A stretch of 64,000 nucleotides of DNA, from positions 1 through 64,000 of IMG/VR virus record IMGVR_UViG_3300035492_000030. One strand, written 5' to 3'. The stretch is from a virus. Below the pieces are notes generated by a model. The model did no database searches and was not told the origin of the DNA. It was given only the letters and a program-made list of their open reading frames with translations. Shown here one piece after another: positions 2,235-43,526 of this stretch (positions are counted from its first letter, which is position 1; every line of letters begins with the position of its first letter). The translations under genes and the position numbers were made by a program.

Positions 2235-3214
2235 TAGGTTACTCCCATTTTATCAAGAATATCTTTTACAACAATACGATCATCTTTCCACCTACGCATA
2301 TGGGCACAGTCAAAGTACGATTGCATCATATCAATGTGGTTTGAAACTCTACCTTCTCCGGTCCAATCTGTGTACATGAATTCTTCTGGATACCAAGATA
2401 GATATAAGTCATGAATCTTCTGCCAGCATTCTTTGTCAGTCTTGAGGTCAGCAAAATCTTTAAAGAAAGATTTTTCACCGTAAGTTGCTTTGCACAACTG
2501 AGTTGGTTTGTATGAGTCAGATGGATCACCAACAGTTGCTTGATAGTAGAGCCACTTCCTGCCAAACCCATCTAGTTTATTTTTTGAGTTGAGGAACACT
2601 TGGCCAAGCCCTTCAATAAACTTAGGTTCACTCATCTTATCCCAATCATAGAGATAACCAGAACATTGCTTTGCGTCCTTGTCAATTGTACATTGAACGT
2701 AGCGTTTTTTACGCTTATAACCTTCCCAAGCATACATTGAAAGAATGTCATCGCTTTCACAGCCATTGGCTTTTTCAGCCTTATATTTCCTTAGTAAATA
2801 GTCTTTTACTTCACCAAGATGGTGTGGACGAATCATGTCTTGACGGCCAGATTTATACTTTACAGGAAGAGGAATATTGTCCCTGAAATTCCCTTCACCT
2901 TGAACGACTACCTTCAGCTCAGAGCATCCTGTTGCAGCTTGAATGTTCTTCAGCATGGCCTTAACAGTATGAAGGCAGTTGGCTATTGGCTCAACAGCTC
3001 GATCATCTTGAATTTCAAAATCATCTTCTGACCATCTGTCGTTTTGTTTAAGCCACTCTTTAAATTCAGTTCGATTGTTGAACTGCTTGCTTCGTTTAGA
3101 TTGTTTATGTGTGACAATAATAAATCGGGTTTCACAGGCTGCTGCCGCCTTGAACCCAATCAAATCTCCGTCCACGATACAAAGGCTCATATCTTCTCCA
3201 ATAAGAAAGCCCAC
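2234..3214 (-). CDS. 5'-3' exonuclease (T7 gp6-like)
   Basis: 326-aa ORF. LCIVDGDLIGFKAAAA, GCESDDILSMYAW, TIDKDAKQ and ATVGDPSDSYKP line up with the recalled T7 gp6 blocks VMDGDWLVFQAMSAAE, LEGDDVMG, SCDKDFKT, TIKGDITDGYSG. Confidence 0.65.
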   Translation of the reverse strand: MGFLIGEDMSLCIVDGDLIGFKAAAACETRFIIVTHKQSKRSKQFNNRTEFKEWLKQNDRWSEDDFEIQDDRAVEPIANCLHTVKAMLKNIQAATGCSELKVVVQGEGNFRDNIPLPVKYKSGRQDMIRPHHLGEVKDYLLRKYKAEKANGCESDDILSMYAWEGYKRKKRYVQCTIDKDAKQCSGYLYDWDKMSEPKFIEGLGQVFLNSKNKLDGFGRKWLYYQATVGDPSDSYKPTQLCKATYGEKSFFKDFADLKTDKECWQKIHDLYLSWYPEEFMYTDWTGEGRVSNHIDMMQSYFDCAHMRRWKDDRIVVKDILDKMGVT

Positions 3215-3259: not shown

Positions 3260-3571
3260 TTACCAACCATGAGCCATGAGATAGGCTTTAGGAACAACAC
3301 CAAACTCTTTCTCAAGATTATCTTTAGCTTCTGCGATCAGTTCATCAAGATTTTCCACCTCTGTGTAGGAATAACTCTCTGTCTTTAAAATCTTGCGACC
3401 ATAGATACAATGCTCGGCATCTGCATCGTAATACGGACTAAAAGAATCTAGACCTTTATCTTCACAAAATTCATAAACACCATGCTCATCATCACTGCAA
3501 TAATTTGGAAGATCTTCAATCTCTTCCAAAGTGTAACCAACACAAATTACTCCACGATATTCAATACCCAT
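3260..3571 (-). CDS. Hypothetical protein
   Basis: 103-aa ORF, co-oriented, RBS-like AGGAAGG upstream of the ATG. Confidence 0.55.
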   Translation of the reverse strand: MGIEYRGVICVGYTLEEIEDLPNYCSDDEHGVYEFCEDKGLDSFSPYYDADAEHCIYGRKILKTESYSYTEVENLDELIAEAKDNLEKEFGVVPKAYLMAHGW

Positions 3572-3586
3572 AATTACCTTCCTCTC

Positions 3587-3847
3587 TTAGTCATCATAAT
3601 TAGTGAGTTCTTTGTACTTTTGAACTACTGCACTTGCTTCACCACTGAACTCTTCAAATTTCTGAGCAACTTCTAGGGCCGCTGCCTTCTGAATTACTTT
3701 GATAGTTTCTTTATCAAACCCTGAGGGATTATGATCTTTGTGGAAAGTGACATCATCTTTAAACTGTTTTAGATCCTGTTTGTTAGTTTCAATTTCAGTC
3801 AGGATGTTTACAAAACGTTCAAACATTTGCTTTTCAGATACATTCAT
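3587..3847 (-). CDS. Hypothetical protein
   Basis: ORF-track 3587..3889. Internal ATG at 3847 has AAGGAG 6 nt upstream, so the shorter 86-aa form is preferred. Confidence 0.5.
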   Translation of the reverse strand: MNVSEKQMFERFVNILTEIETNKQDLKQFKDDVTFHKDHNPSGFDKETIKVIQKAAALEVAQKFEEFSGEASAVVQKYKELTNYDD

Positions 3848-3910: not shown

Positions 3911-4156
3911 TCAATCTAGACGATGAGGGTATTGCCAATAATTCGGATCAACAGGCTTACCAATAACATCTACAGGGCTTTGTTCTGGCTGTCTAACTTT
4001 ATCAAACCAATCTTGTACTTGCTCTTTGACCTTAGTTTCTTTCTTAAAGACAAGCTGAAGATGTTCTTTAATCATCTCCCATTGATCTTCATCTGGGCAC
4101 TTACCTTGAAGTTCAATAAAACCTTGTAACCAATAGCAAAAGGATTGTGCATCCAT
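3911..4156 (-). CDS. Hypothetical protein
   Basis: 81-aa ORF, abuts the next gene (4157). Confidence 0.55.
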   Translation of the reverse strand: MDAQSFCYWLQGFIELQGKCPDEDQWEMIKEHLQLVFKKETKVKEQVQDWFDKVRQPEQSPVDVIGKPVDPNYWQYPHRLD

Positions 4157-4378
4157 TTATACAGCCTCCTCAATTTTAATATACAGATGGAAATCCTTTA
4201 CTTCTTTATCAGAGTCTTCGTAAAAGAATTTCACATCCTTCCAATCACTTTCAACAATCTCTCGATCAAGAGCAAGTTCAACCTTCTTCATGATCGAATT
4301 ACATTCTTGATTACCACCAACATAAGCAAGGAGCTTTCCGATGGTCAGAAGTTCTTTTTCAGTGAAATCAATAAGCAT
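4157..4378 (-). CDS. Hypothetical protein
   Basis: The ORF-track start at 4390 is TTG. The ATG at 4378 is preceded by GGAGGAAACA. Confidence 0.55.
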   Translation of the reverse strand: MLIDFTEKELLTIGKLLAYVGGNQECNSIMKKVELALDREIVESDWKDVKFFYEDSDKEVKDFHLYIKIEEAV

Positions 4379-4433
4379 TGTTTCCTCCAATGAAGCCCTC
4401 CATATTTCAGAAGGGCTTTGAATTTAGTTTAGA

Positions 4434-5273
4434 CTAGAATGGTAGATCTTGGTCGTCAAAGTCTGGCGATGGCTCCTGCTGCTCTACAGGCTTCGGCTGT
4501 GGCTTCGGTTTCTGAGCTGGTTTTGGTTGTTGCTTAGTAGTTCCTTCCTTAGCTTCACCCTTTACATAAGCAGTAACTTCAGGAACAACTTGATCCAGAA
4601 GCATTAGAGCCATTTCCTCAACATCCTCAACATTATCTACTAGTTTACATGCGGTGAGGACAGATTGTCCAGCAGCAGCACCGACATCATATTCACTCAT
4701 GTTTGGATTGGCATCTTTATAAGCTTCCTTCACACGCTCGCTAACATCATGTAGCTGTTTTGCAACTTTAGCAATGTAGTCAAGACTGATATTACTCTCA
4801 CCTTGAATCAGGTTCATAGCAGCATTGATAGCATGACCCACTTGCACGCCAGTCATATCCTTTTTAAAGCCGCCAGAAGCGTTCTGAGAGCCTTGTGGAG
4901 TGCGTTGTTGTGGCTGAGAGGGTTTACCCTCGCCTTTCTTCACAAGCTTAATCTTGCTAGTACCGGAGTTATAATAGATTTTACCATTATACTCGTTCTC
5001 TGTTACAACAAGGCGTACTTCATCACCAACTTCAAGGGTTTGCCAATCTGGTTTTGCGTTGTTACCGTTGTTAAAGCGAATCTGCGGATCATACCCTTCC
5101 TTGGTTTTGATTGAGATGTTACCAACCCAATCACCATCAATCAGAACAGAAGCCCGATGCGTATTACCGAACCGATCATTGACAGCTTCTTTGAACATTA
5201 CACGTTCAACAACACCTTTGATAACAGTGATTTCTTCACCAGTTGCGGGGTTCTCTACCTTTGAAATTGCCAT
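4434..5273 (-). CDS. ssb: Single-stranded DNA-binding protein
   Basis: 279 aa, Gly/Pro/Gln-rich linker, acidic C-terminal tail DFDDQDLPF typical of SSB tips. Sits in the replication module. Confidence 0.7.
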   Translation of the reverse strand: MAISKVENPATGEEITVIKGVVERVMFKEAVNDRFGNTHRASVLIDGDWVGNISIKTKEGYDPQIRFNNGNNAKPDWQTLEVGDEVRLVVTENEYNGKIYYNSGTSKIKLVKKGEGKPSQPQQRTPQGSQNASGGFKKDMTGVQVGHAINAAMNLIQGESNISLDYIAKVAKQLHDVSERVKEAYKDANPNMSEYDVGAAAGQSVLTACKLVDNVEDVEEMALMLLDQVVPEVTAYVKGEAKEGTTKQQPKPAQKPKPQPKPVEQQEPSPDFDDQDLPF

Positions 5274-21281: not shown

Positions 21282-21635
21282 ATGAAAACTACCGTTAACT
21301 TCTCCGCTTTTGTTGATGCTTTCCGTTCCATGAACCGCATGGATAACTTTTCTTATGAGGATCTGGAAGCCCTGTTCGATTATCTGGAGCAATACGAACA
21401 GGATAGCGGCGAAGAAATGGAACTCGATGTTATTGCTCTGTGCTGCGATTATGACGAAAGTGATGTTATGACTATTACTCAGGATTATCAGATCGACCTG
21501 AGCGAAGCAGATCAAGCAATCGATGAGGAAACAAAACAAGATATTATCCTCGAAACCGTTTGTGAATACTTGAACGACAATACAATAGTAGCTGGTGTTC
21601 TGGATAACGGAAACATTGTTTACGCTAATTTCTAA
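21282..21635 (+). CDS. Highly acidic hypothetical protein
   Basis: 117-aa ORF rich in D/E (YEDLEALFDYLEQYEQDSGEEMELDVIALCCDYDESD). Own promoter and a long 5'-UTR hairpin at 21224-21259. Confidence 0.6.
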   Translation: MKTTVNFSAFVDAFRSMNRMDNFSYEDLEALFDYLEQYEQDSGEEMELDVIALCCDYDESDVMTITQDYQIDLSEADQAIDEETKQDIILETVCEYLNDNTIVAGVLDNGNIVYANF

Positions 21636-25907: not shown

Positions 25908-26473
25908 TTCATAAACCGATGTTCACCAATTGTGACTACATACTCAAGCTTGTCAGACCACTTAGGATTCACCTTGTTAGGGTTGTAGTAGTGCGTAGCT
26001 CCGTTGGACACATCACCTATCTTACCATGAATCGTATCATATGCAACCACTTTAGCAGCATTCCAGTCTGATTCTTTGGGTTGTTTCTGCATATGCATGT
26101 CTTTTAGGTAACTAAATTGCTTAGGTTGATGAATAACAGATGTGATCGTGTTAGGCCATTTCTTTGAGTGTACACGATTCATAACAACGTTGGCTACAGC
26201 GAACATCCCCATAAGGCTTTCCGATCTTTCCTCGTATACAACAGCCTCAAAGAGCTTCTTGCACTGAGAACTTTGAGAGCACCAAAGGATCTTTTCTTTC
26301 AGTGTGATCTGCTTTACTGCCAGTGGAGGTAGCTTTGGAATATAAGCTGAAAAGGTTTTGTATTCAGGAACATCGTAGTCTTTCCAAACAACCCTATCAA
26401 CCAAAAATAAGGATAGTCCGATAGCTCCAGACAAGCATCCAAACTTCACCAATTCGTAAGTATTCTGGTTCAT
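25904..26473 (-). CDS. Endolysin, SleB/CwlJ-type cell-wall hydrolase with N-terminal signal-anchor
   Basis: AVVYEERSESLMGMFAVANVVMNRVHSKKWPNTITSVIHQPKQFSY matches the Hydrolase_2 (SleB) signature. N-terminal hydrophobic FGCLSGAIGLSLFLV. Confidence 0.7.
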   Translation of the reverse strand: MNQNTYELVKFGCLSGAIGLSLFLVDRVVWKDYDVPEYKTFSAYIPKLPPLAVKQITLKEKILWCSQSSQCKKLFEAVVYEERSESLMGMFAVANVVMNRVHSKKWPNTITSVIHQPKQFSYLKDMHMQKQPKESDWNAAKVVAYDTIHGKIGDVSNGATHYYNPNKVNPKWSDKLEYVVTIGEHRFMK

Positions 26474-37054: not shown

Positions 37055-37233
37055 TGAAGATTAAAGAGCTAATCAAAGAGTTACAGAAATACGATCAAGA
37101 AGCTATTGTATGGGTGTGGCAAAAGTCATTTCTTGGAGAGGAAAGTGGACAGAACAGAATCTATCGCAGTAAGCTGGAGTTTGTAACACAGTCTAAAAAC
37201 AATGTTCTTAAAATCTACTTGGATGGAGAGTGA
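37054..37233 (+). CDS. Small hypothetical protein (59 aa), MKIKELIKELQK family
   Basis: Below cutoff. ATG overlaps the upstream TGA. Paralog-like to 12490 and 27947. Confidence 0.45.
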   Translation: MKIKELIKELQKYDQEAIVWVWQKSFLGEESGQNRIYRSKLEFVTQSKNNVLKIYLDGE

Positions 37234-37235
37234 TA

Positions 37236-37715
37236 ATGAGTGAGCATGAGAAGTGTGTTGGTGAATCTGATGAATGGTATACTCCTAAATCTATTTTTGA
37301 TGCGATTGGCCTTACTTTTGACCTAGACCCGTGTTCACCAAGCAAAGAACATTGGACCCCGGCAAAGAAATTCTATACAAAGGAAGACGACGGACTGTTA
37401 TCGGAGTGGCAAGGTTTGGTGTGGATGAACCCTCCTTTTGGCGGTAGGAACGGACAAGTCCCTTGGCTTAGGAAATTCATTTCTCACGGAAATGGGATTG
37501 CACTTGTTGCAGCAAGAACTTCGTCTGGATGGTTCCATGAAATTGCTCCTCAGATGGATGGAATGCTTTTTCCAAAAGGAAAGACAAAATTTGTAAAACC
37601 AGACGGGACGATTGGAAAGTCACCCGGCACAGGCGTTGTGTTGTTTTCTTTAGGTCAGGTTGCATCAAATGCGCTTAAAAACAGCGGTCTGGGGATTTAT
37701 CTTGATATTAAATAA
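37236..37715 (+). CDS. dam: DNA N6-adenine methyltransferase (phage Dam-type)
   Basis: SDEWYTPKSIFDAIGLTFDLDPCSP and WMNPPFGG (NPPF catalytic motif). Confidence 0.75.
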   Translation: MSEHEKCVGESDEWYTPKSIFDAIGLTFDLDPCSPSKEHWTPAKKFYTKEDDGLLSEWQGLVWMNPPFGGRNGQVPWLRKFISHGNGIALVAARTSSGWFHEIAPQMDGMLFPKGKTKFVKPDGTIGKSPGTGVVLFSLGQVASNALKNSGLGIYLDIK

Positions 37716-37738
37716 TCCCTGAATTTATAAATTAAGTC

Positions 37739-37767
37739 TTGACAAAGAAACTTTAAGTTGATAGACT
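37739..37767 (+). promoter_or_regulatory. sigma70-type promoter
   Basis: TTGACA-17-TAGACT with GAATTTATAAATTAAG UP-like element. Confidence 0.6.
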
Positions 37768-37808
37768 ATAAGAAATCCAAGCAATTAACAAAAATAAAGG
37801 AATTTCTT

Positions 37809-37958
37809 ATGTCTTACACAGAGCTAGATGAACATGATTTGAAATACATTATAGAAGAGGAAGAAGAAACTAAAGAGCCTAAATTTAGATGGGAGTATTC
37901 TCATGAGTCTCTTACTGAATCAAACAGCATCTTTAAAAGAATTCTTCCTGATTATTAA
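37809..37958 (+). CDS. Small acidic hypothetical protein (49 aa)
   Basis: ATG at 37809 with AAGGAA upstream. Confidence 0.4.
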   Translation: MSYTELDEHDLKYIIEEEEETKEPKFRWEYSHESLTESNSIFKRILPDY

Positions 37959-37965
37959 ATATAGC

Positions 37966-37994
37966 TTGACAATATGAAATATTTATGTTATATT
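37966..37994 (+). promoter_or_regulatory. sigma70-type promoter driving a short non-coding transcript
   Basis: TTGACA-17-TATATT. Confidence 0.65.
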
Positions 37995-38000
37995 TGGCAC

Positions 38001-38172
38001 TGAATGACTAATAGCGTCAAGAAAGTAAATTTCATAACGTTTCTCCTCCAAAACGGGAATGTCACGAACACATATTCCTCCTACTGTGTTCATATAATAC
38101 CCGTAAACAAACCGCGCAATGTGGTTTAGCCTTATCCACTTATTCCTCCTAGAGAGGATAAGGCTTTTTCTT
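38001..38172 (+). ncRNA. Candidate sRNA of about 170 nt with three CCUCC (anti-SD-like) motifs
   Basis: Bounded by the 37966 promoter and a strong intrinsic terminator. TTCTCCTCC at 38041, ATTCCTCCTA at 38075 and 38142. No plus-strand ORF. Confidence 0.5.
38128..38172 (+). terminator. Rho-independent terminator
   Basis: AGCCTTATCC-18 nt-GGATAAGGCT followed by TTTTCTT. Confidence 0.75.
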
Positions 38173-38310
38173 ATGTTGTGTAAATGTACAGGCTGATGTA
38201 CGGGCGTCAACCGCTTAAACGATGCCAGAACGCGAAAGCGTCGCGGAACTCGCCGGAGATCGTGGGTAAGGCCGGCATGTCGGAGATCAGTACCGACTAC
38301 ACAACATAAT
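38171..38310 (+). other. GC-rich multi-hairpin element closed by a 12-bp stem
   Basis: TTATGTTGTGTA (38171-38182) pairs with TACACAACATAA (38298-38309). Inside are about 5 hairpins, two with the same CGGAGATC 5' side. Confidence 0.6.
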
Positions 38311-38350
38311 AAAGAGCCTTAGATAATAAATATTAAAAGGACAATGAATT

Positions 38351-38740
38351 ATGAGTGGGAATAAAAACCCAAGTCACAAGTTTCCGAAAAACAATGATTT
38401 TGGAAACAAAAATGGTAGTCCAGCAAAAACAAGGATTACCAAATCAAAGCTTCGTAAGCTGGCAGACAAACTTCGTGAACGTGAAGACATTGCTCTTGCA
38501 ATCGTTGACCGCTCTCTTGCAGAACAAGAAGTAGCTAATGATGTTGTGTCTACTGCCAAGTGGGTGCTAAATAGTATCGTTACCATTGAAAAGGCTGCTT
38601 CAGCAGAAGAAATTTCTAACTTCAATGCAAGGATGAAGGGTAGAGAGTCTGACGAAGAAGAACAGACCCCTGAAGAGATTGCAGCAGAGGCACCTAAGAG
38701 ACTATCCCTCGTCTATCAAGCACCAGACGATGAGGATTAA
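38351..38740 (+). CDS. Hypothetical protein (possible small terminase subunit; weak)
   Basis: 129-aa ORF. Basic N-terminus (KNNDFGNKNGSPAKTRITKSKLRKLADKL) and acidic C-terminus. Function is inferred only from composition and neighbourhood. Confidence 0.55.
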   Translation: MSGNKNPSHKFPKNNDFGNKNGSPAKTRITKSKLRKLADKLREREDIALAIVDRSLAEQEVANDVVSTAKWVLNSIVTIEKAASAEEISNFNARMKGRESDEEEQTPEEIAAEAPKRLSLVYQAPDDED

Positions 38741-39004
38741 AGAATTTACCTGAGAAGATTGGGAGTTCCTAGTCGTTCCAAACAAGATCGTTTGGCAGGT
38801 AAACCAAATCCGGCTCGGCCGGTATCTTCGCAATTATAGCCTAGTTCCGAAGATAGCCCGATAAACCAAAGGCAATTTTATATTGCTACTATCGGGCGAT
38901 TTAATTCGTGCATACTAAATGTTGCACATATGTGGGGAGGGGAATCGCTTATGGATTCTCGGATAGTGAGCAGGTAGCTGTGGCTACACTATCACGATTT
39001 CTAT

Positions 39005-39088
39005 GCGGGAGTAGCCGAGGGGAGCTTCTAACTCCTTATCCGTAAATGGAGCTGAAAATGTGCGTTCGACTCGCACCTTCCCGTGCCA
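39005..39088 (+). other. tRNA-like fragment with canonical T-arm and encoded CCA but aberrant D-arm
   Basis: GTGCG-TTCGACT-CGCAC T-arm, acceptor-like GCGGGAG/TTCCCGT, ...GCCA end, GGGAG-CTTCTAA-CTCCT anticodon-like arm. Cannot be folded into a standard cloverleaf. Confidence 0.3.
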
Positions 39089-39093
39089 AATTT

Positions 39094-39171
39094 GCCGATG
39101 TAGCATAGATGGATATGCACTAACCTTGTAAGTTAGATCAGGTGGGATCGTTACCTTCACCATCGGCACCA
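39094..39171 (+). tRNA. tRNA-like gene, anticodon UGU (Thr), non-canonical T-arm
   Basis: Acceptor GCCGATG/CATCGGC 7/7 bp. D-arm GCAT-AGATGGAT-ATGC. Anticodon arm CTAAC-CTTGTAA-GTTAG. Discriminator A plus encoded CCA. The T-arm GTGGG/TTCAC has two G-U pairs and a 9-nt loop. Confidence 0.45.
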
Positions 39172-39199
39172 ATTCTATCTATCTTAGGAATTTATAATA

Positions 39200-40024
39200 A
39201 TGAAAACATTGAGCCTAGTAGATAGCGATATTTACTACAATATCTATACAGAAAGTGAATATCCACAAGGAACAACTCTTGTTGTTCATAACAGAACATC
39301 AGATGTATTATTCGTAACGCACTCAGCTACTCAACCTGATCCAGATACACTTCTCTGTGAATTTATTGCTGTTGGTCAAACTGTAGTAGTTCATGCCAAC
39401 GGTCTTCCTATCTGGATTAAAGGTAGTAATGGTCCTATTGTTGTCCAAGCAATTACAGAAAAACTTGTTGCTCCTTTTGAAGTGAGTGACCTTCCTCATG
39501 ATGTATTTACATGGGATCAAGAAGGGTATCGTAGACTTAGGGTAGACAGCGGTCAGACAAGCTTCTTCACAGGCCGGCAAGGTAGAAGCTTTAAAGAATT
39601 CAGTATTGCAGCAGCAGGAACATATTTGATTCAGGTAGTTGTTCCAGTGGATACTGTTCTGTGGAATGTTAGTTTGACAGTTGATGCAGGCAGCGTTAGA
39701 TTTGCTACCTATTCTGGTGGTACACCTTCAGTAACACTCACTGATCCAATCCCATCTATTCCTAAAAATACAATGTCGTCAAGACCTACTCCCCTATACA
39801 CCCTACAAAATACTCTTGTGGGAGGTGTAGCTACTTTAACAGGCGGCACTCTGATTGACGTTGCAAGAGTTGTTACAAGTGGGGCTACAGCACAACAAAC
39901 AACAGTAGGTAGTAGCCCATTCAGCGAACGTGGTGTTGGTATCGGCACTTATCATTTTGTGTTGAACAACTTTAGTAATGGTACAGCAACTGGTGTCCTA
40001 AGCCTCTATTGGGAAGAGCGTTGA
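39200..40024 (+). CDS. Putative virion structural protein (tail-fibre-associated / receptor-binding candidate)
   Basis: 274-aa ORF, Thr/Ser/Gly/Val-rich beta-type composition, immediately upstream of the tailspike cassette. Confidence 0.5.
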   Translation: MKTLSLVDSDIYYNIYTESEYPQGTTLVVHNRTSDVLFVTHSATQPDPDTLLCEFIAVGQTVVVHANGLPIWIKGSNGPIVVQAITEKLVAPFEVSDLPHDVFTWDQEGYRRLRVDSGQTSFFTGRQGRSFKEFSIAAAGTYLIQVVVPVDTVLWNVSLTVDAGSVRFATYSGGTPSVTLTDPIPSIPKNTMSSRPTPLYTLQNTLVGGVATLTGGTLIDVARVVTSGATAQQTTVGSSPFSERGVGIGTYHFVLNNFSNGTATGVLSLYWEER

Positions 40025-42611: not shown

Positions 42612-43526
42612 ATGATAGAAGATAGGCCGAAGGGATTTGTTGATTACACAGGGTTTAAAACTGGTAAAGTAACAGTCCTTGAATTCCACTCTTGGCATGT
42701 TCAACCAAGTGGTCAACGAAAGTCTAAATGGCTTTGTCAGTGTGACTGCGGAAACAAGTTTGTTGCTCTTGGATACAACATTAAGAAAGAAGGTCATACT
42801 ACTTCTTGTGGTTGTGAAAAGAAAGTAACAATTAAAAAGTTTTGGGCAAAAGTAAATTCAGGTGAATGGGTTCCAGAGAAACTTATTGGTGAAAGATTTG
42901 GTAGGCTTTTTGTAAATGGATTCAGTCATTGGCATGAAAGCGAATCACAAAGAACATCCGTATGGGATTGCACTTGTGACTGCGGTAATACAGTGAAGAT
43001 GCGACGTCCATATCTAATGAGTAATGAAGTTTCAAGCTGTGGTTGTTATAAATCAGAAATTCTTTCCGCACTGCAAACAAAACACGGGATGCATGGAACA
43101 CCTACTCATAAATCTTGGACGAAGATGAAAGAGCGGTGCCTATCAGAGTACTATAAAGAGAAAGAGTATTATCAAGACAGAGGTATTACAATCTGTCAAG
43201 AATGGATTGACTCTTTTGAAGCGTTTTATGCAGACATGGGCGAACGACCAGAGGGAACTTCTTTAGATAGGATTGACCCTAATAAAGGTTACTATAAAGA
43301 AAATTGTCGATGGTCTGATCTTACTATCCAAGCGTACAATCGCAGGATGAACACCAATAACACATCAGGTAGGACTGGCGTCTATCAACTTAAAAACGGC
43401 AACTGGCAAGCAATTATTGTCCACTATAAAGAAAGAATCACATTAGCATATGATGTTTCCTATGAGGAGGCTTGTAAAGCGAGAGAAGAAGGAGAGTTGA
43501 AATACTATGGCTGGACAAAACAATGA
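42612..43526 (+). CDS. Homing endonuclease (degenerate HNH plus AP2-like), paralog of 28574..29296
   Basis: Two CxCDCGN...SCGC repeats, GERPEGTSLDRIDPNKGYYKENCRWSD, NTSGRTGVY...WQAII (AP2-like). Its 3' end overlaps the terminase start. Confidence 0.65.
   Translation: MIEDRPKGFVDYTGFKTGKVTVLEFHSWHVQPSGQRKSKWLCQCDCGNKFVALGYNIKKEGHTTSCGCEKKVTIKKFWAKVNSGEWVPEKLIGERFGRLFVNGFSHWHESESQRTSVWDCTCDCGNTVKMRRPYLMSNEVSSCGCYKSEILSALQTKHGMHGTPTHKSWTKMKERCLSEYYKEKEYYQDRGITICQEWIDSFEAFYADMGERPEGTSLDRIDPNKGYYKENCRWSDLTIQAYNRRMNTNNTSGRTGVYQLKNGNWQAIIVHYKERITLAYDVSYEEACKAREEGELKYYGWTKQ

Follow-up and report, generated by a model that had tools for sequence, protein, structure and literature searches.

Positions 38741-39199 of the virus record IMGVR_UViG_3300035492_000030 are, by gene order and sequence comparison, the tRNA locus of a phage, in the slot where its relatives carry tRNA clusters. 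This locus probably encodes a working tRNA-Thr(UGU) and a working tRNA-Arg(UCU) built on a phage body plan, preceded by hairpins that may serve RNA processing or stability. The window (the whole stretch of DNA analyzed, 64,000 nucleotides) covers the first 64 kb of a viral record that is complete at 80,904 bp, has terminal repeats and 40% G+C, and probably derives from a tar-pit metagenome. A first-pass annotation of the window had described 38741-39199 as a stretch of hairpins free of open reading frames (ORFs) and ending in two tRNA-like units with encoded CCA. That description was confirmed: from the stop codon of ORF 38351-38740 to the ATG at 39200 we found no credible ORF but only ORFs of 26-62 amino acids that overlap the RNA genes on either strand and that we read as spurious, and the whole stretch has a folding energy of -146.9 kcal/mol, where shuffled sequences average -126.4 (z = -3.0). 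Here we will refer to the first and second tRNA-like genes as unit 1 and unit 2. The earlier annotation had left three options for them, namely decayed tRNAs, functional odd tRNAs, or processing or mimicry elements. The evidence favors functional odd tRNAs for both units and disfavors the others, because their stems change in compensatory fashion, because a relative carries a canonical tRNA pair in the same slot and because the genome has no other tRNA for these codons.

A tRNA-Arg(UCU) without a D hairpin

Unit 1 has the acceptor stem, discriminator base and encoded CCA of a tRNA and an anticodon arm with U33 and a purine at position 37, and the stem of this arm covaries in relatives. It has no D hairpin, and could form none, because only seven bases separate the acceptor and anticodon stems. 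The first-pass annotation had correctly described the textbook T arm, the CCA end and the lack of a D hairpin; it had seen neither the Arg(UCU) anticodon arm nor the long-range helix that replaces the D arm. The GGAG...CTCC...GGAG alternative pairing that it proposed proved to be a coincidence of the window copy: across the family described below, the first strand pair is the covarying anticodon stem, which takes many different sequences, and the second GGAG is an invariant core motif.

When the stretch was compared with cultured phages by blastn only unit 1 found a match, at 77-78% identity in T5-like Vibrio phages in which the sequence was never annotated; in Vibrio phage D260 (L002) the match exactly fills an empty slot between tRNA-Leu and tRNA-Pro. 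Two patterns were then run against IMG/VR, one fixing the core motif after the anticodon arm and the other fixing no more than the 5' connector, the UCU loop and GTTCGA, with the spacing between them set (a first, looser DNA pattern had returned mostly chance matches). The second pattern found 54 loci where about one was expected by chance. The two independent patterns, each leaving the motif of the other free, recovered the same family, and the recovered sequences carry the motif of the other pattern. Fifty-four members were collected, 45 of them were aligned, and two family models, R1 and R2, were built. Unit 1 scores 93.7 and 91.7 bits against the family models, with every invariant base present.

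The family has a layout of U8-A9-N-C-C-G-A-G, the anticodon arm, ..C-GUAA-nn-GGA-G-N'-U-G-AAAA-U and a canonical T arm, for a total of 83 nt. Of the cells in the 45-sequence alignment, 97.8% are paired. Over the 20 pairs tested the covariation score reaches 0.92, where shuffles give 0.24 and slid controls no more than 0.19. Pairing in the acceptor, anticodon and T stems is 95-99%, with two-sided changes in 16 of 17 pairs. The connector U8 A9 N C C G A joins the acceptor stem to G15, which stands opposite U33 at the foot of the anticodon stem. Pair 10:48, which joins the connector to the base two positions after the invariant GGA, shows perfect covariation: it is G-C in 29 members, A-U in 13, G-U in two and U-A in one and is never unpaired (the window copy, anticodon UCU, has G10:C48), and columns 10 and 48 were free in both search patterns. 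With A9:U49 and C11:G47 this pair makes a 3-bp helix that encloses the anticodon arm, and one paralogue alters two of the three pairs compensatorily (ACA/UGU). C37-G-U-A-A, G44-G45-A46-G47, G50 and U55 are invariant even where not required. The minimum-free-energy structure given by RNAfold for unit 1 contains the acceptor, anticodon and T arms and the 9-11:47-49 helix, along with a few further pairs that lack support in the family. A small 36-38/43-45 hairpin put forward by RNAalifold was rejected since it shows no two-sided change. So was the tRNA-Arg(ccg) reading that ARAGORN gives for unit 1 and its homologue in Vibrio phage PG07: the anticodon stem of that reading does not covary (columns 32/42 are U-C and U-U), whereas the UCU/ACG hairpin does.

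In three dimensions we would expect the 3-bp helix to stand for the D hairpin, with the anticodon arm nested inside it: it would stack on the anticodon stem, taking the place and length of the D stem, and would be entered from U8 at its far end. The core would be filled by the invariant C-GUAA-nn-GGA-G motif, whose CGUAA..GGA segment would loop out between the two helices, and by the purine-rich linker GAAAAU, which would connect the helix top with the T stem.

The anticodon loop is always C/U-U-NNN-A-N, and the anticodons in the aligned set are UCU or ACG. Searches with the models found the same body with UCG, CCU, ACG and GCG, and the anticodons of the main class are all for arginine (C35 with U36 or G36). 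In E. coli, C35 and U36/G36 are determinants for arginyl-tRNA synthetase (ArgRS), which also uses A20. A divergent subclass carries the isoleucine anticodons UAU and GAU, and the GGA of the Arg class is GGU in the Ile class. G44-G45-A46 resembles G18-G19-A20, and the GGA/GGU difference, set beside the use of A20 by ArgRS, is suggestive as a lead only; contact with the elbow by G44-G45 is geometrically doubtful under a simple stacking model. We noted D-hairpin-less genes with Ile anticodons at L026 9649-9731 (-), L026 9820-9901 (-), L004 2238-2317, L154 6155-6238 (-) and L156 537-616; the L026 and L004 copies, the three of these loci scanned in full, are not called by ARAGORN. CCA is encoded in 32 of the 45 aligned members, and 31 of the 54 collected have another tRNA on their strand no more than 300 nt away. 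Taken together, the comparisons identify the unit 1 family as arginine tRNAs with a phage-only body plan, which would be charged and would decode as such.

Cultured carriers include about 295 T5-like Vibrio phages, the Microbacterium phages Pumpernickel and Zooman and the Sinorhizobium jumbo phage Phosso, and none of the 40 cultured-phage records listed annotates the rewired gene as a tRNA. Many uncultured phages carry it too. A pattern scan of 596 Gb of prokaryote genomes returned four true members, all on short contigs of metagenome-assembled genomes, and five unrelated matches, about the number expected by chance. Judged by these scans the family is widespread and phage-restricted. It is also poorly visible to standard tools: ARAGORN at default settings misses 49 of the 54 members and names one correctly, and only about half of 16 other members pass the Rfam tRNA model, at 30-39 bits, where neighboring canonical tRNAs score 45-73. 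The relaxed ARAGORN modes that the first-pass annotation had recommended succeeded in part, calling unit 2 as tRNA-Thr(tgt) at -ps and unit 1 only at -ps90 and with the wrong anticodon (ccg). The best Rfam match of unit 1 is tRNA-Sec, at 22.4 bits well below the threshold of 47, and the gene is below the tRNA threshold as well.

Several observations accompany the family. Tandem arrays of two or three rewired Arg tRNAs that differ in anticodon (UCU, UCG, CCU, ACG) occur within one phage contig, at L164 6288-6370 and 6376-6458, L176 1650-1929 and L154 5298-5690, and such arrays often adjoin canonical Arg tRNAs. On the viral contig L134 a permuted (alpha-type) tmRNA gene (3405-3727, - strand) stands beside a rewired Arg tRNA, and in Vibrio phage D260 a full-length GOLLD RNA (4032-4447; 177 bits against an Rfam threshold of 150) follows the tRNA cluster at a distance of about 1.4 kb. 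Salmonella phage Felix O1 (L187) carries at 25951-26032, unannotated, an Arg(UCU) tRNA-like gene that lacks a D hairpin, scores 41.3 bits with the family model (E about 1e-10) and overlaps the annotated start of an HNH endonuclease coding sequence (26003-26395). With unit 1 it shares the Arg(UCU) anticodon arm, the canonical T arm, the lack of a D hairpin and a position in a tRNA cluster, and its end is A+CCA. It is nevertheless a distant cousin, whose core differs on both sides of the anticodon arm and has lost CGUAA..GGAG, whereas the window copy belongs to the tight core family.

Compared with canonical bacterial tRNA-Arg(UCU), of which E. coli argU is an example and the tRNA at 15-90 of contig L182 another, the family retains the 7-bp acceptor, a G/A/U discriminator, a usually encoded CCA, the 5-bp anticodon stem with a loop C/U-U-UCU-A-A/C, the T-arm positions G53, T54, T55, C56, R57, A58 and C61, the location in tRNA clusters, and C35 with U36/G36. 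It differs in having no D hairpin, a connector of seven bases and, behind the anticodon arm, a conserved segment of 22 nt with three bases that pair back to positions 9-11. Metazoan mitochondrial D-armless tRNAs such as mt-tRNA-Ser(AGY) also lack a D hairpin, have a short connector and are expected to decode, but they are about 60 nt long, with a plain replacement loop and often weakened T arms (PMC7609411). The phage genes, in contrast, are 83-84 nt long, with a textbook T arm, a covarying long-range helix and an invariant core, so that the D stem of the phage family is, by this comparison, rebuilt and not lost. tRNA-Sec and the allo-tRNAs are likewise non-canonical tRNAs outside organelles, tRNA-Sec is the best Rfam match of the window copy, and the allo-tRNAs too favor Arg and Ile(UAU) anticodons (PMC7609411). 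However, they have acceptor/T geometries of 8/4, 9/3 or 9/4 (PMC7609411), while the phage family combines the normal 7/5 geometry with the lack of both a long variable stem and a normal D arm; the match to tRNA-Sec is made by deleting the D arm.

A tRNA-Thr(UGU) with a bulged T stem

Unit 2 has a perfect 7-bp acceptor followed by A and CCA, a D arm (GCAT/ATGC) with GG in its loop, and an anticodon loop of CUUGUAA, with U33 and a purine at 37; the anticodon stem covaries in relatives. The first-pass annotation had rightly assigned it to Thr(UGU). The departure is in the T arm, whose stem carries a bulge of two nucleotides (UU) on the 3' strand or, equivalently, whose loop is 9 nt long. To fit a canonical T arm, which then carries A54 and U58, two U have to be bulged from the 3' strand, and relatives keep this arrangement. 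The Rfam alignment of the L185 copy yields the most economical model, in which five Watson-Crick pairs, G53-C61 among them, enclose a loop of 7 nt and the two U are bulged. An alternative T arm from RNAfold (AGGUGG/UUACCU) was rejected as L185 does not keep it. ARAGORN reports nothing for unit 2 at default settings and gives the call at -ps a 9-nt T loop. The Rfam tRNA model (RF00005) scores it at 38.5 bits against a threshold of 29 with sensitive filters, and a scan of the whole window with default filters missed it.

A blastn search with unit 2 found no match in cultured phages. Homologues were found on contig L185 (3411-3488), which was obtained through homologues of the gene upstream and has the same T arm, GTGGG-N7-CC-TT-CAC, and on L188 and L189, which were added by a pattern scan. 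Across three distinct sequences in this comparison every proposed pair is standard (100% of cells paired) and none is broken. Two-sided changes affect nine pairs, where shuffles give 3.0 such pairs and slid controls 0-1. Seven of the nine lie in stems (four acceptor, one D, two anticodon), and the remaining two are the tertiary pairs 19:56 (G:C for the window copy, C:G for its homologues) and 54:58 (A:U against U:A). From this pattern unit 2 looks like a tRNA under purifying selection rather than a wreck.

E. coli threonyl-tRNA synthetase (ThrRS) uses G1-C72, C2-G71, G35 and U36, all of which are present in unit 2. The canonical tRNA-Thr(UGU) genes of relatives (M1, L114 3314-3389; L182 96-170; L183; L186) share with it G1-C72, C2-G71, the loop CCUUGUAAG and the place in the genome, and A73 is found as well in those of M1, L183 and L186. 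Set beside these canonical genes, unit 2 and each of its three homologues are longer by two bases on the T arm's 3' side and differ in the D arm. C19:G56 replaces the near-universal G19:C56 in three of the four tRNAs of the unit 2 type, the window copy keeping G19:C56, and the window copy has A54:U58 where canonical tRNA-Thr has U54:A58. Unit 2 would thus be a working tRNA-Thr(UGU) with two extra bases in the 3' strand of its T stem, its ThrRS identity set kept and its elbow intact.

The tRNA slot and the competing readings

On these comparisons the source phage (80.9 kb, 40% G+C) is related to Pseudomonas phage vB_PsaM_M1, its closest cultured relative, with a terminase 82% identical. M1 has tRNA-Pro, tRNA-Asn and tRNA-Thr(tgt) directly before its homologue of ORF 39200, and phiPMW, a more distant Pseudomonas phage, has six tRNAs before its terminase. 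Further relatives were retrieved with ORF 38351 as the anchor; the protein of ORF 39200, used as a query, found no close relatives in viral contigs. On the metagenome contig L182, whose counterpart of ORF 39200 is 93% identical, the slot holds canonical Arg(tct), Thr(tgt) and Pro(tgg) genes at 50-59 Rfam bits. The Arg(UCU)-Thr(UGU) order of L182 is that of units 1 and 2 while the sequences are unrelated, and by this synteny the two units occupy the place of canonical tRNAs of the same specificity in the same order. The contents of the slot are exchanged as cassettes among the contigs of relatives: X4 has 184 other bases in place of both units, and in X6 the 3' end of a different canonical tRNA abuts position 39175. 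Both units are present in the soil contig X3 (about 91% identical), for which no indel is listed between 38869 and 39191; for that reason X3 appears, from the indel list and not from a reading of its sequence, to share both the extra acceptor base of unit 1 and the bulge of unit 2. Unrelated sequence in relatives and sub-threshold scores for both units were among what the first-pass annotation had said would together refute it; some relatives do carry unrelated tRNAs, others have homologues of each unit, and unit 2 passes the Rfam tRNA threshold.

Within the genome unit 1 is the only Arg tRNA. ARAGORN finds no other tRNA candidate genome-wide at default settings and, when relaxed, the two units and a doubtful His(atg), which at -ps90 lies at 21433-21521 inside the leftward gene block and is probably a false positive. 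AGA and AGG make up 26% and 15% of the Arg codons of the phage and ACA 32% of its Thr codons. AGA and ACA are rare in G+C-rich hosts such as the Pseudomonas of M1, which may not be the host of this phage. A supply of tRNAs for AGA and ACA would be the simplest functional reading of the two genes. The RNA would most likely be transcribed together with ORF 38351 from host-type promoters and cut by host RNase P and 3' trimming enzymes; CCA addition would not be needed since CCA is encoded. Identity elements, covariation, synteny and codon usage suggest that the products would then be charged by ArgRS and ThrRS and would decode the heavily used AGA and ACA codons.

Several points weigh against this account. 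The extra base of unit 1, which makes it the sole 84-nt copy among the 45 aligned members (the others have 83 nt), lies in the 3' acceptor strand, as a C that either bulges out or stands unpaired where the T and acceptor stems meet; it could impair the tRNA and lowers our confidence in the full activity of the window copy. The invariance of the family core leaves pairing beyond 10:48 unreadable from covariation. An additional unit 1 hairpin (35-37/44-46) that we proposed from the first 14 members fell when 35-36 proved to vary freely and GGA to be fixed. Neither unit is indispensable to the lineage, as relatives such as L182 and X4 readily swap in other or canonical tRNAs. The public RNA-library contigs that touch 38741-39199 lie outside both units, and assembled contigs are in any case no measure of expression. 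Finally, rewired Arg(UCU) genes often stand beside canonical Arg(UCU) genes of the same cluster, as in L004, L026, L055, L154, L156 and L158, which fits plain codon supply poorly. A bolder proposal, which we consider doubtful, is that phage evolution has produced new tRNA body plans (a D stem remade about the anticodon arm for Arg, a bulged T stem with exchanged elbow pairs for Thr) and that both units are immune-evasive replacements for canonical Arg(UCU) and Thr(UGU), accepted by the ArgRS, ThrRS and ribosomes of the host and missed by nucleases or surveillance aimed at tRNAs.

The hairpins upstream of the units (38741-39004) raise a separate alternative, namely that they are independent stable small RNAs or regulatory elements, with element E1 as a CCA-ending tRNA-like minihelix or with the hairpins as attenuators of late-gene read-through. 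Read as a 7-bp stem, E1 is followed by A and then CCA, and L185 (about 2902-3004) retains both the closing stem, altered compensatorily (TTTACATG/CATGTAAA), and the CCA that follows, with a different interior; a long hairpin ending in ACCA also lies directly after the rewired Arg tRNA inside the tRNA cluster of Vibrio phage PG07 (L001, about 2583-2640). Even so, X3 replaces exactly 38746-38806 by an unrelated 30-nt hairpin, so E1 is dispensable, and X6 likewise swaps in a small hairpin. A minihelix RNA that ends in CCA and a mobile cassette are two possible readings of E1. The segment 38741-38822 folds with z = -3.0 against shuffles and 38820-38900 with z = -4.4 (none of 200 shuffles as good). 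The deletions of X3 in hairpins c and d all fall in loops and leave both 8-bp stems intact, and L185 has hairpins of other sequence at the places of c and d (z = -4.3). A leader of two hairpins, about 65 nt long and starting GTG(G/C)GGAG, is common to three related phages directly before their first tRNA, whatever that tRNA is (the unusual Arg and Thr genes in the window and L185, Pro in M1): M1 (L114 3078-3143) has it before tRNA-Pro with compensatory changes in five of seven hairpin A pairs and in two hairpin B pairs, L185 (3336-3402) has a third version before tRNA-Thr, and most leader stem pairs have changed compensatorily across the three. Conservation of this kind would suit independent RNAs, but L188 and L189 lack the whole array and have the Thr gene directly after the ORF, no T-run terminator was found on the + strand of the array, and the array had no Rfam match, no copy elsewhere in the genome and no blastn match in cultured phages. 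We regard independent RNAs as unlikely, and there is a modest case that the hairpins are processing or stability structures of a common transcript. The T4 species 1/2 RNAs, cited in the first-pass annotation as a precedent, are not needed for the two units, for which tRNA suffices as an explanation, and are a loose analogy from general knowledge for E1 and the hairpins.

That one or both units are decaying pseudogenes, the remnants of a cluster, is distinctly unlikely. It would account for the failure of ARAGORN at default settings to call either unit, for the scores of unit 1 below every Rfam threshold, for an acceptor insertion that unit 1 alone has in its family and for the canonical tRNAs in the slot of close relatives. 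It does not sit well with a unit 1 that, bar one base, fits all invariant positions of a 45-member family, with a unit 2 oddity common to three relatives in which the only changes are compensatory, with a relative at about 91% identity that has no indel across either unit, or with a genome that uses AGA and ACA heavily and has no other Arg or Thr tRNA.

Very unlikely, in our view, is a mainly non-codon role for the unusual bodies, as spare tRNAs invisible to nucleases or as nuclease decoys, with decoding secondary or absent: the redundancy of rewired and canonical Arg(UCU) genes argues for a second function, the family is confined to phages, both window units have extra bases in the 3' strand of the acceptor/T helix, and there are published cases of defenses that cut tRNAs and of phage tRNAs that evade them (PMC10264068, PMC11555353, PMC13056530, PMC13096335), but the anticodon loops of both units are fully canonical, contrary to the published escape route by loop mutation, and the rewired gene is the only Arg tRNA of the window, at the place of a relative's canonical Arg(UCU), so that ordinary decoding suffices.

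To our knowledge nearly all tRNAs outside organelles share one cloverleaf, and the exceptions (tRNA-Sec, tRNA-Pyl and the allo-tRNAs) each opened a line of work. The rewired Arg family would be a further exception, with a D stem built from two segments that flank the anticodon arm, and the smaller Thr family would tolerate a bulged T stem with compensating changes in elbow pairs. A 2020 review of non-canonical tRNAs has no phage case and no such topology (PMC7609411), Rfam 15 has no family for either architecture, and we found no published description of either in the literature searched, which is not proof of novelty. What appears new is a core-family Arg member that replaces a canonical Arg(UCU), a tRNA-Thr family with a bulged T stem and tertiary covariation, and a conserved hairpin array. 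Since standard finders miss such genes, phage tRNA inventories and analyses of codon compensation would undercount Arg and Ile tRNAs. For ArgRS, EF-Tu, RNase P and the ribosome alike, the rewired family tests how much of the tRNA core is really needed. Given that many anti-phage systems cut tRNAs, it is also a candidate means of escape, and it is a possible source of orthogonal tRNA scaffolds.

Feature positions and neighboring genes

The features of the locus are collected in Table 1; the hairpins listed in the first-pass annotation were all found where it had placed them.

Table 1. Positions in the window of the RNA genes, hairpins, flanking genes and promoter matches
Feature	Position	Strand	Remarks
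Sigma-70-like promoter match	37739-37767	+	TTGACA-17-TAGACT, 10/12 consensus
Sigma-70-like promoter match	37966-37994	+	TTGACA-17-TATATT, 11/12 consensus, with TG
Upstream gene (ORF 38351)	38351-38740	+	129-aa conserved hypothetical protein
Element E1	38745-38806	+	8-bp closing stem TTTACCTG/CAGGTAAA around two hairpins, CCA directly after
Hairpin CCAAAC/GTTTGG	38778-38795	+	
Small GC hairpin	38811-38823	+	
Hairpin c	38823-38855	+	8-bp stem, TATCTTCG/CGAAGATA
Hairpin d	38856-38897	+	8-bp stem, GCCCGATA/TATCGGGC
Hairpin GTGCA/TGCAC	38908-38927		
Leader	38932-38994	+	GTGGGGAGGG; directly 5' of first tRNA; hairpin A 38940-38960, hairpin B 38962-38994
Hairpin B	38962-38994	+	GATAGT..GTAGC-tgtg-GCTAC..ACTATC
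Unit 1, non-canonical tRNA-Arg(UCU)	39005-39088	+	Family models, covariation
Unit 1 acceptor	39005-39011 with 39077/8-39084	+	7 bp, two G-U
Unit 1 long-range helix	39013-39015 with 39051-39053	+	
Unit 1 anticodon arm	39020-39036	+	Anticodon TCT 39027-39029; loop CUUCUAA
Unit 1 core motif	39041-39051	+	CGTAA..GGAG
Unit 1 T arm	39060-39076	+	GTGCG-TTCGACT-CGCAC, fully canonical
Unit 1 G+CCA	39085-39088	+	
Unit 2, tRNA-Thr(UGU)	39094-39171	+	Anticodon TGT 39127-39129; encoded A+CCA
Downstream gene (ORF 39200)	39200-40024	+	274 aa, PHROG 13935, unknown function; marks syntenic slot in relatives

Genes of the window run leftward to about 35.5 kb and rightward from 36.2 kb, and the RNA stretch lies early in the rightward block. 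The product of the gene upstream matched no family in a search of PHROG families, and its homologues number 44, several of them on phage contigs of 34-96 kb. The two promoter matches upstream of ORF 38351 are candidate starts of the transcript of the RNA genes, as consensus matches only. They are the two best matches in a gene-free, A+T-rich stretch of 636 nt (37715-38350) that has no RNA family match; no tRNA remnants were found when sought in 37650-38400. Just before this stretch a short ORF (37230-37715) matches only the middle of DNA methyltransferase profiles (PHROG 111, positions 63-199 of 345). Downstream of ORF 39200 come a tail-fiber-like gene, an HNH endonuclease, the large terminase and the portal. 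The HNH endonuclease gene (42612-43526) overlaps the start of the large terminase (43507), and the corresponding region of M1 is annotated as terminase plus homing endonuclease.

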